Shown here: positions 474 through 6,466 of the stretch, piece by piece | How the letters are laid out: every line of letters starts with the position of its first letter | Position numbering within the stretch: position 1 is the first letter of the stretch | IMG/VR virus record: IMGVR_UViG_2606217106_000014 | Location: 1 to 6,466 of that record | Source of the DNA: a virus | Taxonomy: Duplodnaviria; Heunggongvirae; Uroviricota; Caudoviricetes | Length of the DNA stretch: 6,466 nucleotides | Direction: 5' to 3' (one strand) | The notes under the pieces: model-generated | What the model saw: only the letters and a program-made list of their open reading frames with translations | Told to the model about the DNA's origin: nothing | Database searches by the model: none | Position numbers and translations under genes: made by a program

Positions 474-1520
474 GTGCGGGTATTACTTCGACCTGTTCTG
501 GTACCGGAACTCGGGCTGGTGATCGTTAAGCCGGGCCGTGAATCCATGCCGGTATTCCACAATACCCGGGTACTGGTGGAGCCGGAACCGAAAAGCATGC
601 GTAATCTGCCGTCCGGGGTCGTTCCTGCCGTTCGCCAGCCGCTGGCGGAGGATAAATCATTACTGCCATTTTTCAGCGACGAACGAGTGATTCGTGCTGC
701 TGGTGGCGCTGGCGCATTGTCTGACTGGTTACTGCGCCATGTTAAATCCTGCCAGTGGCCACACGGCGATTATCACCACAGTGAAACCGTCATTCACCGT
801 TATGGTACCGGCGCAATGGTGTTGTGCTGGCACTGCGACAACCAGCTGCGCGACCAGACCTCCGAATCACTCGGGCAACTTGCTCACCAAAACCTGTCTG
901 CATGGATGATTGACGTCATACGCCATGCAATGAATGGCTCGCAGGAACGGGAATTATCGCTGGCTGAATTATCCTGGTGGGCGGTCCGCAATCAGGTGGC
1001 GGACGCGCTACCGGAAGCGGTATTACGTCGTTCGCTGGGGTTGCGTGCGGAAAAAATCCGCTCAATGTACCGTGAAAGCGACATCGTACCGGGAGAGCAG
1101 ACCGCCACCAGCATACTGAAGCAGCGCACAAAAAATCTTGCGCCGCTGCCTCACGCCCACCAGCAAACCCCGCCACAGGAAAAGACGGTGGTCAGCATTG
1201 CTGTTGATCCGGAGTCTCCGGAATCTTTAATGAAGCGACCTAAACGTCGCCGTTGGGTAAATGAGAAATATACGCGCTGGGTAAAGACACAGCCGTGTGC
1301 GTGTTGTGGTAAGCCAGCCGACGATCCCCATCACCTGATTGGTCATGGTCAGGGCGGAATAGGGACAAAAGCCCACGATATTTTCACGCTACCGTTGTGT
1401 CGGGAGCATCACAACGAACTTCATGCTGATCCGCTGGCATTTGAAGAAAAGCATGGTTCCCAGATTGATTTAATTTTTCGTTTTCTTGATCGCGCCTTTG
1501 CAACCGGCGTGCTCGGGTAA
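474..1520 (+). CDS. DUF968-family prophage protein (YdfU-like) with C-terminal Cys/His HNH-like motif
   Basis: 348-aa ORF with GTG start preceded by GGAGG (465-469). C-terminus CACCGKPADDPHHLIGHGQGGIGTKAHDIFTLPLCREHHNELH has CxxC...HH...C..HH..H spacing resembling an HNH/zinc-finger nuclease fold. Position immediately upstream of rusA and Q matches lambdoid nin regions. Confidence 0.8.
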   Translation: MRVLLRPVLVPELGLVIVKPGRESMPVFHNTRVLVEPEPKSMRNLPSGVVPAVRQPLAEDKSLLPFFSDERVIRAAGGAGALSDWLLRHVKSCQWPHGDYHHSETVIHRYGTGAMVLCWHCDNQLRDQTSESLGQLAHQNLSAWMIDVIRHAMNGSQERELSLAELSWWAVRNQVADALPEAVLRRSLGLRAEKIRSMYRESDIVPGEQTATSILKQRTKNLAPLPHAHQQTPPQEKTVVSIAVDPESPESLMKRPKRRRWVNEKYTRWVKTQPCACCGKPADDPHHLIGHGQGGIGTKAHDIFTLPLCREHHNELHADPLAFEEKHGSQIDLIFRFLDRAFATGVLG

Positions 1521-1532
1521 AAGAGGTTACTG

Positions 1533-1907
1533 ATGCGTATAGAGTTTGTTTTGCCTTACCCGCCGACGGTGAACACCTACTGGCGTCGTCGTGGCAGCAC
1601 ATATTTTGTATCAAAAGCCGGTGAGCGTTATCGCCGGGATGTGGCACTTATTGTCCGCCAGCAGCGGCTGAAATTAAACCTGTCCGGAAGGCTGGCAATA
1701 AAAATTACTGCAGAGCCACCGGATAAGCGCCGTCGTGACCTGGACAATATTCTGAAAGCACCACTGGATGCACTGACGCATGCGGGGCTTCTCATAGACG
1801 ACGAGCAGTTTGATGAAATCAATATTGTGCGCGGTCAGGTCGTTCCCGGTGGGCGGTTGGGCGTGAAAATTTACGAAATAATGCATGACGGGCAGGTCAA
1901 AAAATGA
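1533..1907 (+). CDS. rusA: RusA-family Holliday junction resolvase (crossover junction endodeoxyribonuclease)
   Basis: 124-aa ORF with RBS AAGAGG (1521-1526). PPDKRRRDLDNILKAPLDALTHAGLLIDDEQ matches the RusA catalytic core of E. coli RusA ([30 protein letters not shown]), as recalled. Confidence 0.9.
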   Translation: MRIEFVLPYPPTVNTYWRRRGSTYFVSKAGERYRRDVALIVRQQRLKLNLSGRLAIKITAEPPDKRRRDLDNILKAPLDALTHAGLLIDDEQFDEINIVRGQVVPGGRLGVKIYEIMHDGQVKK

Positions 1908-2725
1908 AGCTGGAAGATTTACCGAAATACTATTCCCCGAAATCGCCTGGCCTGACCGATGCGTCCGCCTCGACATCAAAAGATGCGCTGAGTATCACTG
2001 ATGTGATGGCCGCGCAGGGCATGACACAAAATCGGGCTGAGATGGGTTTTTCTGCGTTCCTTAGGAAAATGGGCATTAGTATGAATGACAGAGAGCGGGC
2101 AACAGAATTGCTGACAGAATATGCACTCAGTCGGTGTGATCGCGTGGCGGCGTTAAGAAAACTCCCGGCAGAAATAAAACCGGTAGTGATGCGCATTATG
2201 GCTTCGTACGCTTTTGAGGATTATGCCCGCAGCGCAGCGAGTAAAAAGCAGTGCCCTTGTTGCTATGGGGAAAAATTTATTGAAAGCGTAGTTTTTACAA
2301 ACAAGGTCCAGTATCCGGATGGTAAGCCGCCGGTATGGGCAAAGTGTACGAAAGGTGTGTATCCGTCTTACTGGGAAGAATGGAAAAAAGTCAGGGAGGT
2401 GGTAAAAGTTGCCTGTCCGGAGTGTGGCGGAAAGGGTGAGGTTTCCACCGCCTGTAAGGATTGCCGTGGGCGTGGTGTCGCCATTCATCGTGAAGAGTCG
2501 GTAAAACGTGGTATGCCTGTTATCAGAGACTGCCAGCGTTGTGGTGGTCGTGGCTGTGAAAGACTACCATCAACGGAGGCATTTAATGCCATATGCAAAG
2601 TGACGAGTGCTATCACGCTTGATACGTGGAAAAAATCAGTGAAACGCTTTTACGATACGTTGGTGGTTCGGTTTGACATTGAAGAGGCATGGGCGGAGCG
2701 GCAGTTAAAGAGGGTAACGCGATAG
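1904..2725 (+). CDS. Q: Lambda-family late antiterminator Q with expanded CxxC zinc-binding region
   Basis: 273 aa. N-terminus (YYSPKSPGLTDASASTSKDALSITDVMAAQGM) and C-terminus (TWKKSVKRFYDTLVV...RVTR) align by eye with lambda Q. Four CxxC motifs, three of them CxxCxGxG (CPECGGKG, CKDCRGRG, CQRCGGRG). ATG overlaps the rusA stop (ATGA at 1904-1907). Confidence 0.85.
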   Translation: MKLEDLPKYYSPKSPGLTDASASTSKDALSITDVMAAQGMTQNRAEMGFSAFLRKMGISMNDRERATELLTEYALSRCDRVAALRKLPAEIKPVVMRIMASYAFEDYARSAASKKQCPCCYGEKFIESVVFTNKVQYPDGKPPVWAKCTKGVYPSYWEEWKKVREVVKVACPECGGKGEVSTACKDCRGRGVAIHREESVKRGMPVIRDCQRCGGRGCERLPSTEAFNAICKVTSAITLDTWKKSVKRFYDTLVVRFDIEEAWAERQLKRVTR

Positions 2726-2730
2726 TGTTG

Positions 2731-2775
2731 TTGATTTTTCCCGAATCTGTGGTAAATTTGCTCTAACGATGGGCG
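2731..2775 (+). promoter_or_regulatory. pR'-like late promoter with qut (Q-utilisation) site
   Basis: TTGATT (2731-2736), 16-bp spacer, extended -10 TGgTAAATT (2750-2758), then TGCTCTAACGATGGG. This closely resembles lambda pR' (TAAATTTGACTCAACGATGGG), including the AACGAT pause-inducing element (2765-2770). Sits directly downstream of Q. Confidence 0.7.
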
Positions 2776-2806
2776 TTTTATGCCTGACGTTATAAGATTT
2801 TTTACA

Positions 2807-2831
2807 CCCCGCCGCCTGGCGGGTTTTTTTA
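2807..2831 (+). terminator. tR'-like intrinsic terminator
   Basis: Stem CCCGCC (2808-2813) / GGCGGG (2818-2823), loop GCCT, then T7 (2824-2830). Predicts a short pR' transcript of about 65 nt. Confidence 0.75.
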
Positions 2832-3300: not shown

Positions 3301-4350
3301 ATGCTTAATACTGTAAAAATATCCAGTTGTGAGTTAATCAACGCCGACTGCCTGGAATTTATCCGGTCGTTACCCGAAAATTCTGTTGACCTGATAGTCA
3401 CGGACCCGCCGTACTTTAAAGTGAAGCCTGAGGGCTGGGATAACCAGTGGAAGGGCGACGATGATTACCTGAAGTGGCTGGACCAGTGTCTGGCGCAGTT
3501 CTGGCGGGTGCTGAAACCTGCCGGAAGTCTTTACCTGTTCTGTGGTCATCGCCTGGCATCTGATATCGAAATCATGATGCGTGAACGCTTCAGTGTGCTG
3601 AACCATATTATCTGGGCGAAGCCGTCCGGACGCTGGAACGGATGCAACAAGGAAAGCCTGCGGGCGTATTTCCCCGCCACAGAGCGCATTCTGTTCGCGG
3701 AACATTATCAGGGGCCGTATCGTCCGAAAGATGCCGGGTATGCGGCGAAGGGCAGTGCACTGAAACAGCATGTGATGGCCCCGCTGATTTCTTACTTTCG
3801 TGATGCGCGCGCGGCCCTGGGGATAACGGCAAAACAGATTGCAGATGCCACAGGAAAGAAAAACATGGTGTCGCACTGGTTCAGTGCCAGTCAGTGGCAG
3901 TTGCCGAACGAAAGCGATTATCTGAAATTACAGGCGCTGTTTGCCCGGGTGGCAGAAGAGAAACATCAGCGCGGTGAACTGGAAAAGCCCCACCACCAGC
4001 TGGTGGATACGTATACGTCACTGAACCGGCAGTATGTGGAGCTGCAGAGTGAATATAAGCATCTGCGGCGGTATTTTGGTGTGACGGCGCAGGTGCCGTA
4101 CACGGATGTGTGGACACATAAACCGGTGCAGTTCTATCCCGGGAAACATCCGTGCGAAAAACCGGCAGAAATGCTGCAGCAGATAATCAGCGCAAGCAGT
4201 CGTCCGGGTGACCTGGTTGCAGATTTTTTTATGGGCTCAGGTTCAACGGTAAAGGCGGCTATGGCGCTTGGGCGTCGTGCAATTGGTGTTGAGCTGGAGA
4301 CCGGACGTTTTGAGCAGACAGTCAGGGAAGTTCAGGATTTAATCGTTTGA
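3301..4350 (+). CDS. Orphan DNA N6-adenine methyltransferase, beta class (N6_N4_Mtase type)
   Basis: 349 aa. Motif IV DPPY near the N-terminus (LIVTDPPYF) and motif I FxGxGS near the C-terminus (DFFMGSGSTVKAAMALGRRAIGVE), i.e. the permuted IV->TRD->I order of beta-class amino-MTases. No restriction endonuclease partner in the window. Confidence 0.9.
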   Translation: MLNTVKISSCELINADCLEFIRSLPENSVDLIVTDPPYFKVKPEGWDNQWKGDDDYLKWLDQCLAQFWRVLKPAGSLYLFCGHRLASDIEIMMRERFSVLNHIIWAKPSGRWNGCNKESLRAYFPATERILFAEHYQGPYRPKDAGYAAKGSALKQHVMAPLISYFRDARAALGITAKQIADATGKKNMVSHWFSASQWQLPNESDYLKLQALFARVAEEKHQRGELEKPHHQLVDTYTSLNRQYVELQSEYKHLRRYFGVTAQVPYTDVWTHKPVQFYPGKHPCEKPAEMLQQIISASSRPGDLVADFFMGSGSTVKAAMALGRRAIGVELETGRFEQTVREVQDLIV

Positions 4351-4399: not shown

Positions 4400-4475
4400 G
4401 GCCCTTTAGCTCAGTGGTGAGAGCGAGCGACTCATAATCGCCAGGTCGCTGGTTCAAATCCAGCAAGGGCCACCA
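4400..4475 (+). tRNA. tRNA-Ile2 (anticodon CAU, ileX/ileZ-like; automated tools may call it Met)
   Basis: 76-nt cloverleaf: acceptor GGCCCTT/AAGGGCC, D-arm GCTC...GAGC, anticodon loop CTCATAA, T-arm GCTGG-TTCAAAT-CCAGC, discriminator A, encoded CCA. Near-identical in layout to E. coli ileX as recalled. Confidence 0.85.
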
Positions 4476-4482
4476 TCACATA

Positions 4483-4559
4483 CCGCCATTAGCTCATCAG
4501 GAAAGAGCGCCAGCCTTCGAAGCTGGTTGCGCGGAGTTCGGGTCCCCGAAGGCGGTCCA
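4483..4559 (+). tRNA. tRNA-Arg-like, apparent anticodon UCG, with non-canonical features
   Basis: D-arm GCTC...GAGC, anticodon stem CCAGC/GCTGG with loop CTTCGAA, T-loop TTCGGGT, 3' CCA. Acceptor CCGCCAT/AAGGCGG has one mismatch and starts with C; the T-stem has one mismatch. Boundaries +/- 2 nt. Confidence 0.6.
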
Positions 4560-4572
4560 TTATCTGTATCCT

Positions 4573-4649
4573 GCGTTGTTAGCTCAGCCGGACAGAGCAA
4601 TTGCCTTCTAAGCAATCGGTCACTGGTTCGAATACAGTAGAACGCGCCA
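4573..4649 (+). tRNA. tRNA-Arg (anticodon UCU)
   Basis: Acceptor GCGTTGT/AGAACGC (one mismatch), D-arm GCTC...GAGC, anticodon stem ATTGC/GCAAT with loop CTTCTAA, T-loop TTCGAAT, discriminator G, encoded CCA. Confidence 0.8.
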
Positions 4650-4688: not shown

Positions 4689-4900
4689 AAATGTCTCATA
4701 ATTCAGGCGGTTGACTGTTGTCTGGTTTGCGGGGAGTTTGTTAAAAGAAACTGGCATGGTGAATCCCCCTGTGCGGAGGGGCAATCAGCAACTGGTGTTT
4801 TGTCACCGACCCTTATCCTTTCTGTGCGGGTTCAGGTGCTGATACTGAACTCACCGGGAGGCACCCGGCACCATGCAATGGCACATAGCGCCACTCTCCA

Positions 4901-4925
4901 GCCCCTCTCCGGAGGGGCTTTCTTA
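4901..4925 (+). terminator. GC-rich hairpin with weak U-tract (terminator-like or RNA structural element)
   Basis: Perfect 8-bp stem AGCCCCTC (4901-4908) / GAGGGGCT (4913-4920), tetraloop TCCG, then TTCTT. Confidence 0.35.
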
Positions 4926-4930
4926 TGGAC

Positions 4931-4958
4931 AAAAAAATCCCGCGCTGGGAGACGCGGG
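4931..4958 (-). terminator. Minus-strand intrinsic terminator
   Basis: On the minus strand: stem CCCGCG (4958-4953) / CGCGGG (4944-4939), 8-nt loop, then A and T7 (4937-4931). Confidence 0.45.
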
Positions 4959-5152
4959 CGGCAAGGAATAAACAACAAAACGTGAAGTAATATTTCAGTT
5001 GGCGAATAATATCCGACAGTAATCACTCTGCGCAATAGCGCGGCCTTTTTCGTATTGCGGGCTGTTGTCTATCTTCTGCCATTGTCCTGTAACTTCCGGA
5101 CTTCAGCCCGCTCCTCATTTTACTCACAATATTATCCAGGCCGGGAGGATTC

Positions 5153-6466
5153 ATGGCATTTAAACACTATGACGTGGTCAGGGCGGCGTCGCCGTCAGAC
5201 CTTGCGGAGCGACTGACACAAAAACTGAAGGAAGGCTGGCAGCCGTTTGGCAGTCCTGTGGCTATCACGCCTTATACACTGATGCAGGCCATTGCCGCAG
5301 AGGGTGATGTGACCACGCCTGTGGTTGTGCCCGACACAGGGGCTGGTGGCTCTCCGGGAGTGGCTACCACTGAACCGGAGTATTACTACGTTATTCCCCA
5401 GGCCGGGCAGTCGAACGGTATGGCCTATGGTGAGGGGCTTCCTCTGCCGGAGACCTATGATCGCCCTGACTCCCGTATTAAGCAGCTGGCCCGTCGCAGC
5501 ACTGTGACGCCGGGTGGTGATACCTGTGCATACAATGACGTTATTCCGGCAGACCACTGTCTGCATGATGTTCAGGACATGAGCGCACTTAACCATCCTC
5601 ATGCAGACCTGAGTAAGGGCCAGTACGGGACTGTCGGTCAGGGGCTGCATATTGCCAAAAAACTGCTGCCTTATATCCCGCAGAATGCCGGGATTCTTCT
5701 GGTGCCCTGTTGCCGTGGCGGGTCTGGTTTAACCGTGGGTAATGACGGCACGTTCAGCGAAACGTCTGGCGCATCGGCAAATTCAGCCCGCTGGGGAGTG
5801 GGTAAACCGCTGTATCAGGATTTTCTCTTCCGTACAAAAGCGGCGCTGTCGAAGAACCCGAAAAACAGGCTTCTGGCCGTGGTATGGATGCAGGGGGAAA
5901 ATGATCTTGCGGACGGCAGTCAGCAGCACAGCGGCCTGTTTACCACTATGGTGCAGCAGTTCAGGGCTGATATGGCTGCATATTCTGCACAGTGTGTTGG
6001 CGGAAGTGCTGGCTCGGTGCCGTGGATTTGTGGTGACACCACGTATTACTGGAAGAATCTTAACGCCGATAAATATGAGGCGGTATATGGCGGTTACAAG
6101 GGCAGGGAAGCACAGAATATTTTCTTTGTTCCTTTTATGACGGATGAGAATGGACAGAGCACGCCAACGAATGCTCCGGCGGAAGACCCGGATATTGTGG
6201 CTGTCGGGTATTACGGTGCAGCATCCCGAACCCAGGGCAGTTTTGTTTCGACACAGCGTGACAGCCATTTCAGCTCATGGGCACGCAGGGGCGTCATTTC
6301 AGACCGTCTGGCCTCAGCTATTATGCTCCATGCAGGGCGCACGGCTGAATTGATGCGCGGGCAGACCGTGACACCACCGGATGAGAAGCCGTCACCTGAT
6401 ACACCATCAAAACCGTCCACGCCACCCGCAGACACCACGACGATGAGTACGCTATTTGCTTACCGG
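5153..6466 (+). CDS. nanS-p: NanS-p-type prophage sialate O-acetylesterase (DUF1737 N-domain + SASA/SGNH esterase domain), 5' partial - runs off window end
   Basis: Not in the ORF track because there is no stop in the window; 438 codons open from ATG 5153 (RBS GGGAGGA) to 6466. Translation MAFKHYDVVRAASPSDLAERLTQKLKEGWQPFGSPVAITPYTLMQAIAAEG... then YYYVIPQAGQSNGMAYGEG (GQSN catalytic-serine block), and a Pro/Thr-rich linker TPPDEKPSPDTPSKPSTPPADTTT near the window end. Confidence 0.85.
   Translation, partial: MAFKHYDVVRAASPSDLAERLTQKLKEGWQPFGSPVAITPYTLMQAIAAEGDVTTPVVVPDTGAGGSPGVATTEPEYYYVIPQAGQSNGMAYGEGLPLPETYDRPDSRIKQLARRSTVTPGGDTCAYNDVIPADHCLHDVQDMSALNHPHADLSKGQYGTVGQGLHIAKKLLPYIPQNAGILLVPCCRGGSGLTVGNDGTFSETSGASANSARWGVGKPLYQDFLFRTKAALSKNPKNRLLAVVWMQGENDLADGSQQHSGLFTTMVQQFRADMAAYSAQCVGGSAGSVPWICGDTTYYWKNLNADKYEAVYGGYKGREAQNIFFVPFMTDENGQSTPTNAPAEDPDIVAVGYYGAASRTQGSFVSTQRDSHFSSWARRGVISDRLASAIMLHAGRTAELMRGQTVTPPDEKPSPDTPSKPSTPPADTTTMSTLFAYR

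Follow-up and report, generated by a model that had tools for sequence, protein, structure and literature searches.

Here, we identified positions 2731-2830 of a 6,466-nt stretch of viral DNA (the window) as, very probably, the late-gene control cassette (pR', qut and tR') of a lambdoid E. coli prophage, which adjoins its own lambda-family Q gene and has the usual layout of this family. The window as a whole (6.5 kb) is the late-control region of such a prophage, and its features are listed in Table 1. A lambda-type Q/qut/tR' cassette had already been proposed from the sequence alone (the sequence-only reading), and this proposal is supported by a PF03589 Q protein, a match to the lambda Q structure 7UBM, a pause element identical to that of lambda and, at the homologous site of the K-12 prophage Qin, a 3' end mapped in vivo. 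On the other hand, the same reading had regarded the distance between promoter and terminator as unusual. When relatives beyond lambda are considered, this unusual compactness dissolves, and the element proves to be an ordinary switch for late genes in a family of prophages that is very common. What is new is modest: a 5'-terminal AACG/CGUU hairpin that recurs across the family, and the sRNA-like layout of the short RNA.

Table 1. Features of the window, with the basis of each assignment
Feature	Position	Strand	Basis
DUF968/YdfU gene	474-1520		
rusA	1533-1907		
Q antiterminator gene, 273 aa, lambda-Q family long form	1904-2725	+	Pfam PF03589
pR'/qut/tR' cassette	2731-2830	+	Directly 3' of its own Q gene
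Predicted pR' -35 hexamer, TTGATT	2731-2736	+	Sequence; same position relative to the -10 in related loci (TTTACT or TTGCAT)
Promoter spacer, 16 bp, TTTCCCGAATCTGTGG, candidate Q-binding element	2737-2752	+	Position; analogy with lambda
TG giving an extended -10	2750-2751	+	
pR' -10 hexamer, TAAATT	2753-2758	+	Identical to lambda pR'
-35-like TTGCTC, 1 bp upstream of the pause element	2758-2763	+	Counterpart of lambda TTGACT
Predicted start (A 2765), sigma-dependent pause element AACGAT (+1 to +6) and GGG; AACGATGGG	2765-2773	+	Comparison with lambda
5'-terminal RNA hairpin, nt 1-27; AACG (1-4) with CGUU (24-27), inner stem 7-12/16-21	2765-2791	+	Minimum-free-energy fold
TATG, +15 to +18, fits the T-N-Y-G scrunched-pause consensus	2779-2782	+	
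Single-stranded A/U-rich linker AUAAGAUUUUUUACAC, 16 nt	2792-2807	+	Unpaired in minimum-free-energy and centroid folds
tR' intrinsic terminator, +44 to +66	2808-2830	+	Terminator scan, fold; same place in every related locus
TrmB-like ORF, 65 aa	2953-3150	+	ORF list, Pfam; first gene past tR'
N6/N4 DNA methylase	3301-4350	+	ORF list, Pfam; 3' of the TrmB-like ORF
tRNA cluster (three genes)	4400-4649	+	
STnc100 sRNA	4725-4930	+	Rfam match, 143 bits, E = 1.3e-32
DUF1737 + sialate O-acetylesterase (SASA) ORF, runs off the window end	5153-6466	+	

The promoter follows the Q gene closely, with the Q stop codon ending at 2725 and the -35 hexamer beginning at 2731. A lambda-derived pattern (TAAATTTGNNNNAACGATGGG) matched the window only once, at 2753-2773, and was found in none of 200 shuffled sequences, even when two mismatches were allowed. 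Compared with lambda, the -10, the TG after it, the spacing and the 9-nt AACGATGGG are identical, and all but one of 30 lambda-family Q loci (29) carry AACGATGGG or a near variant. The sequence-only reading had described a near-copy of lambda pR', which is correct for the -10 and the initial transcribed region but does not extend to the promoter spacer. It had also placed a CTC between the -10 and pause blocks, which is one base short: the 4 nt between the -10/TG and AACGATGGG are CTCT here versus ACTC in lambda. The promoter was absent from the list of a generic promoter scan, as only 8 of its 12 hexamer positions agree with the consensus and 9 were required. Because the generic scan missed the site, the promoter call rests on homology to lambda and P22, and its activity has only indirect support, from the 3' end at the K-12 homologue described below.

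Several details of the initial transcribed region were predicted by comparison with lambda, by analogy with which transcription would start at 2765. The -35-like element keeps only the TTG of lambda TTGACT, and variants among the copies read TTGCCC. In lambda, sigma region 4 is repositioned on this element (cf. PMC9388147), and TTGCTC may play the same role here. The pause consensus at lambda pR' is T+14 N Y+16 G+17 (PMC9191641); as the match in the window (T15 A16 T17 G18) lies 1 nt further downstream than that of lambda, a pause is predicted at about +17 (2781). An 8-codon ORF on the plus strand (ATGGGCGTTTTATGCCTGACGTTATAA; MGVLCLTL, 2769-2795), which starts inside the pause element, was also noticed. 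It is unconserved, with two codons in lambda and an open end in Qin, and is probably meaningless; a hidden peptide gene was rejected on this basis.

The Q-binding element of lambda lies between the -35 and -10 hexamers. We found conservation of the spacer TTTCCCGAATCTGTGG in loci with Q proteins of 50-100% identity, and that the spacer block TTTTCCCGAAWCTGTGK is kept in loci (L202-L208) whose Q proteins are only 50-58% identical. As lambda Q recognises an element within the late promoter (PMC9388147), the spacer at 2737-2752 is presumed by analogy to be the Q-binding element of this cassette. It is unlike the lambda spacer (TATTGAATAAAATTGGG), and a different DNA specificity of the Q protein is therefore predicted.

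The protein encoded upstream is a clear member of the lambda Q family (PF03589, 169.6 bits versus a cut-off of 26.7; 1.6e-50). It is 30% identical to lambda Q in an alignment with a 68-residue gap, and it matches the lambda Q structure (PDB 7UBM) over residues 1-113 and 182-273 (E = 4e-38). The intervening 68-aa insertion (residues 114-181) adds two Cys-pair motifs to the zinc-ribbon arm, so that four such motifs are present (CPCCYGEK, CPECGGKG, CKDCRGRG and CQRCGGRG) versus two in lambda Q. Extra CxxCxGxG repeats had been pointed out by the sequence-only reading and are indeed there, with the Pfam model DnaJ_CXXCXGXG itself remaining below threshold (26.3 bits versus 32.7). The protein shares its N-terminal segment and a C-terminal VTR with lambda Q, in which they help to build a nozzle that narrows the RNA-exit channel (PMC9388147). 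Based on family membership, the alignment to the lambda Q structure and the conserved nozzle-forming termini, we infer the same mechanism of antitermination. Such long-form Q proteins are common, including those of Gifsy-2, SfV, Stx2c phages and K-12 Qin (QuuQ/YdfT, 40% identical to the window Q).

The tR' hairpin (CCCGCC-GCCT-GGCGGG, 2808-2823) has a 6-bp all-G/C stem and a 4-nt loop and is followed by seven T residues at 2824-2830. Its first base lies 38 nt past the last base of AACGAT, and the predicted terminated RNA (2765-2830) is 66 nt; the sequence-only reading had given ~40 nt and ~65 nt. By the same measure, the lambda unit is 193-194 nt (L002, 788 to 980/981). To examine how unusual such a close terminator is, we surveyed one genome per species and found 29 lambda-family Q loci across Enterobacterales. 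The order of promoter, AACGATGGG (or near variant) and terminator is kept in all of them. The distance from the start to the end of the T-tract has a median of 64 nt (range 54-166 nt) and does not exceed 76 nt in 25 of the 29 loci. A tR' at this distance is thus not unusually close, and P22, with 59 nt, was already annotated; a terminator is also annotated in SfV. The short distance between promoter and terminator is the usual layout of this Q family, in which lambda is an outlier. Although the position of the terminator is conserved over the 29 loci, the hairpin sequences are often unrelated, a pattern that speaks for selection acting on early termination itself.

The sequence-only reading had also combined compactness and the extra Cys motifs into one variant of the switch. 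This combination did not hold in the family. Short units were found both with Q proteins of 250-277 aa and with Q proteins of 207 aa (P22, 59 nt; Yokenella locus L247, 55 nt), and four long Q proteins (L204, L205, L212 and L220) have long units of 103-166 nt. Hence, the spacing is not tied to the extra zinc motifs. The 166-nt leader of L204 (Dryocola sp.), located 3' of Q, contains a block very like the interior of lambda 6S (GAGGCGGTGCTTATCACGGATTCCGCCTAGTTGG...GAGAGGTCTGC), which suggests that the extra length of lambda represents an inserted block shared with a few relatives. These results imply that the 194-nt 6S RNA of lambda is atypical and that the common design is a promoter-pause-terminator unit of 55-75 nt, which prophage annotators could label routinely. 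Our understanding of how Q antitermination works is unchanged by these findings. In addition, the same 621-bp Q match (~30% identity to the query) was observed in many non-enteric assemblies (L228-L245 and L258), such as Pseudomonas, Shewanella, Bacillota MAGs, Bradyrhizobium and others. Some of the contigs are ~48.4-48.5 kb, and these matches appear to stem from contaminating phage-lambda DNA and not from native prophages.

Evidence that a terminator of this kind operates in vivo came from the Qin prophage of E. coli K-12. Just 3' of quuQ/ydfT, the sequence reads TTGCAT-17 bp-TAAAAT-TTTTTC-AACGATGGGCTTTGTATACCCGACGTTAAG...CCCGCTgatgAGCGGGTTTTGTG, and this leader is clearly homologous to that of the window; the terminator stems of the two differ by a compensatory change from C-G to T-A (U-A in RNA). 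A curated 'orphan' 3' end has been reported by Term-seq at 1642356(-), exactly past the Qin hairpin (Adams et al., 2021, Supplementary file 1; PMC7815308). This position is entered three times in a table that covers three growth conditions. Thus, the homologous terminator of Qin yields a real 3' end in vivo, with the evidence fixing the 3' end only, and the orphan site is explained as the Qin late-promoter terminator. If the start is placed at the A of AACGAT, the Qin RNA would be ~67 nt, an unannotated late-promoter unit at NC_000913.3 1642356-1642422 (-) (4357-4423 (-) of our locus L200). Qin resembles the window in its long-form Q (250 aa, 40% identity), its homologous leader and a terminator at the same distance. 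It differs in its promoter hexamers and their 17-bp separation, in a spacer of the TTCAAAAAATATGGA class, in the lack of any RNA annotation in K-12 and in being a defective prophage.

Taken with what is known of lambda, these features suggest how the cassette would work. Sigma-70 RNA polymerase would initiate at about 2765; sigma region 2 would then re-bind the -10-like AACGAT formed by the first six transcribed bases, and the complex would pause near +17. If Q is absent, the polymerase would resume and terminate at the hairpin and its U7 tract (+44 to +66), releasing an RNA of ~66 nt. If Q is present, it would bind the promoter-spacer DNA and load onto the paused complex, where its N-terminal segment, as in lambda, would form a nozzle on the RNA-exit channel that blocks the terminator hairpin. 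Transcription would then continue into the small ORF, the methylase gene, the tRNA genes and the late genes. It has been reported that lambda Q finishes loading at an RNA length of ~16 nt, with the RNA 5' end threaded through the nozzle (PMC9388147), and a hairpin beginning at +44 is therefore fully compatible with antitermination. Several points count against the cassette reading: the -35 is weak, the spacer is unlike that of lambda, the -35-like element keeps only TTG, and the Q protein of the homologue with Term-seq data is 40% identical to that of the window.

The leader RNA has a predicted structure of its own. Its fold has an energy of -21.9 kcal/mol (z = -2.74; -2.78 in a second run), and among 28 distinct leaders of the family, 22 had a hairpin closing the 5' end in their best fold, versus 1.3 expected when the pause element was kept and the remainder shuffled. 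These hairpins vary from 20 to 29 nt, with one compensatory case (AAUG/CAUU). Within the class of equal length, 93% of cells were paired versus 28-44% in slid registers. As the pause element keeps the 5' strand invariant, covariation of the 5' hairpin in this class did not exceed that of column shuffles, and RNAalifold on a mixed alignment recovered the terminator alone. The 5' hairpin is plausible but not proven.

A hairpin flush with the 5' end is known to stabilise an RNA. The hairpin may protect both transcripts, the short RNA as well as the late mRNA, against 5'-end-dependent decay, or may act as a stopper after the RNA has been threaded through the Q nozzle. It is also conceivable, by analogy with StxS, that the hairpin, the A/U linker and the U-tailed terminator together may form an Hfq-type regulatory RNA. 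We regard it as a rather unlikely possibility that the short RNAs (54-76 nt) from pR' in cassettes with a lambda-family Q are more than waste of the switch and that the conserved 5' hairpin, which includes the RNA copy of the pause element, is functional. Such RNAs would be made constitutively by the prophages of nearly half of the complete E. coli genomes, including Qin of K-12.

The most serious alternative, which adds a second role to the RNA, is that the ~66-nt transcript is also a regulatory sRNA, made constitutively from the prophage and acting in trans, possibly with Hfq, like StxS and IsrK. We consider this improbable. The layout is sRNA-like, with a 5' stem-loop, a U7-tailed terminator and, between them, 16 nt of single-stranded A/U-rich sequence; the K-12 homologue is expressed in three conditions; 'cspF.ydfT.IGR' is a node in Hfq RIL-seq data; and precedents exist in StxS (PMC7547250) and in IsrK, directly 3' of antQ (PMC4825925). 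However, the linker, which would be the likely seed, is unconserved between subgroups (AUAAGAUUUUUUACAC in the window versus AAGAAAAAGUAGAAAA in Qin), and the K-12 intergenic region has a very low score (0.0024) in a RIL-seq-based predictor. No Hfq peak was reported at the Sp6 copy of the element in Sakai, in a study that excluded peaks within 100 nt of a gene (Tree et al., 2014), which makes this absence uninformative. Moreover, the Rfam covariance-model scan over 2731-2831 gave no match at E ≤ 1, and the homologous positions of six related loci, including Gifsy-2, SfV, P22 and Sakai Sp6, gave chance-level matches only, by which membership in an IsrK-type or other known Rfam sRNA family was rejected. 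The evidence for a StxS/IsrK-like function of the window RNA is thin. The pR' transcript may be viewed as a candidate: a very widespread prophage RNA, presumably made constitutively, with an sRNA-like shape.

The tR' hairpin (2808-2833) is also a mosaic joint between phage modules. About 20 records of Stx2 phages and phiP27 match the window from 2808 onward with a different Q upstream (126 aa in Stx2_EH2201, the single record inspected among them), and phage Evi matches the end of Q up to 2833 only and then diverges. Joints that fall exactly at the terminator, together with the poor -35, might indicate that the main task of the hairpin is to terminate the early-right/Q transcript arriving from upstream and that it marks a recombination joint between modules, with a weak or inactive promoter-like sequence in front of it. 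We find this very improbable. Across genera, the promoter and AACGATGGG are conserved together with the terminator, the -10 and pause element exactly match a proven promoter, and the K-12 orphan 3' end, found in all three conditions, needs an active promoter nearby, because the early genes of Qin are presumably repressed. Besides, ending an upstream transcript and serving as a late-gene switch are not mutually exclusive. It is just as hard to believe that the element is a non-functional relic of a decayed prophage (many E. coli prophages are cryptic, and the Qin homologue itself lies in a defective one), since an intact Q ORF is present, with copies of 100% identity on other contigs, every element of the cassette is intact and the same unit occurs in phage genome records (Evi; Stx2_EH1910 at 90.9%).

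The late-gene cassette is widely distributed. The Q-pR' region (1904-2900) was found at a coverage of at least 80% in 2479 of 5426 complete E. coli genomes, and the segment 2700-2900 at the same coverage in 1414 of them. Prophage Sp6 of EHEC O157:H7 Sakai has the same 273-aa Q gene followed by the same pR'-tR' element, with its RNA predicted at 1554209-1554273 on the plus strand, and in ~110 near-identical IMG/VR copies of the element the terminator ends at +64 to +66 in all cases. The order of TrmB-like ORF and methylase gene downstream is common to Stx2 phages, and expression of these two genes would need Q-dependent readthrough of tR'. In Sp6, EcOnc33 is encoded on the opposite strand, 3 kb from the pR'-tR' element.

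Further downstream, several additional features were observed. The tRNA trio consists of CAT, Arg-TCG and Arg-TCT; the CAT tRNA is assigned to Met by ARAGORN, and its equivalent in Sakai Sp10 is annotated as tRNA-Ile 'ileZ'. Stx phages are known to have such a trio upstream of stx, whereas no toxin genes follow it here. The STnc100 sRNA ends in its own terminator (4900-4925), and copies of it occur in Sakai Sp6 as well as twice in an Enterobacter hormaechei locus (L202). A minus-strand terminator (CCCGCGTCTCCCAGCGCGGG followed by seven T residues; 4939-4958, upstream to ~5030) converges on that of STnc100. Convergent sRNA pairs, including the anti-sRNAs AsxR and AgvB, have been placed at such a position (Tree et al., 2014); when window positions 4925-5030(-) were aligned to the AgvB1 region of Sakai, no convincing match emerged. 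The ORF at the end of the window is the counterpart of a gene annotated in Sakai Sp6 as 9-O-acetyl-N-acetylneuraminic acid deacetylase.

Among known systems, IsrK of Salmonella Gifsy-1 (PMC4825925) resembles the window in that a short terminated RNA lies directly 3' of antQ and has a readthrough isoform that extends into downstream genes. It differs in acting on its own readthrough mRNA, a kind of target that is not evident for the window RNA, and the latter has no Rfam link to the isr families. StxS of Stx1/Stx2a phages (Sy, Lan and Tree, 2020; PMC7547250) is likewise produced in lambdoid prophages of E. coli by early termination at tR' of a constitutive late promoter directly 3' of Q. However, its Q is of another type (144 aa), RNase E processes its 258-nt unit to 74 nt, and it has demonstrated Hfq binding and the targets rpoS and stx1B (PMC7547250). 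The window, with a PF03589 Q of 273 aa and a unit of 66 nt, is set apart from StxS by both Q type and unit size, and identity with StxS was rejected on these two features.

Lambda shares with the window the Q protein family, the -10, the spacing, AACGATGGG, the T-N-Y-G consensus and the order of Q, promoter, terminator and late genes. The differences concern the length of the RNA (193-194 nt versus 66 nt), the promoter spacer and the 68-aa zinc-motif insertion, which lambda Q lacks. A homologue of lambda 6S RNA along its full length was ruled out, as the similarity is confined to the first ~9 nt and the hairpin-closing CGTT. P22 (NC_002371.2) also has a lambda-family Q (gene 23). A promoter comes next, then an RNA that begins with AACGATGG and ends at an intrinsic terminator, and its leader forms an AACGA/UCGUU 5' hairpin. 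Its record carries the annotations 'P late or pR'', 'similar to lambda qut', an RNA 5' nucleotide at 37887 and 't late or tR'' at 37917-37945, which places the terminator at +31 to +59 and gives a unit of 59 nt. P22 differs from the window in its short-form Q (207 aa versus 273 aa) and in a spacer almost identical to that of lambda, and the terminator hairpins of the two are non-homologous. In spite of these differences, the window has a compact unit of the P22 type, with a terminator within ~60-70 nt of the RNA 5' end and 3' of a lambda-family Q.
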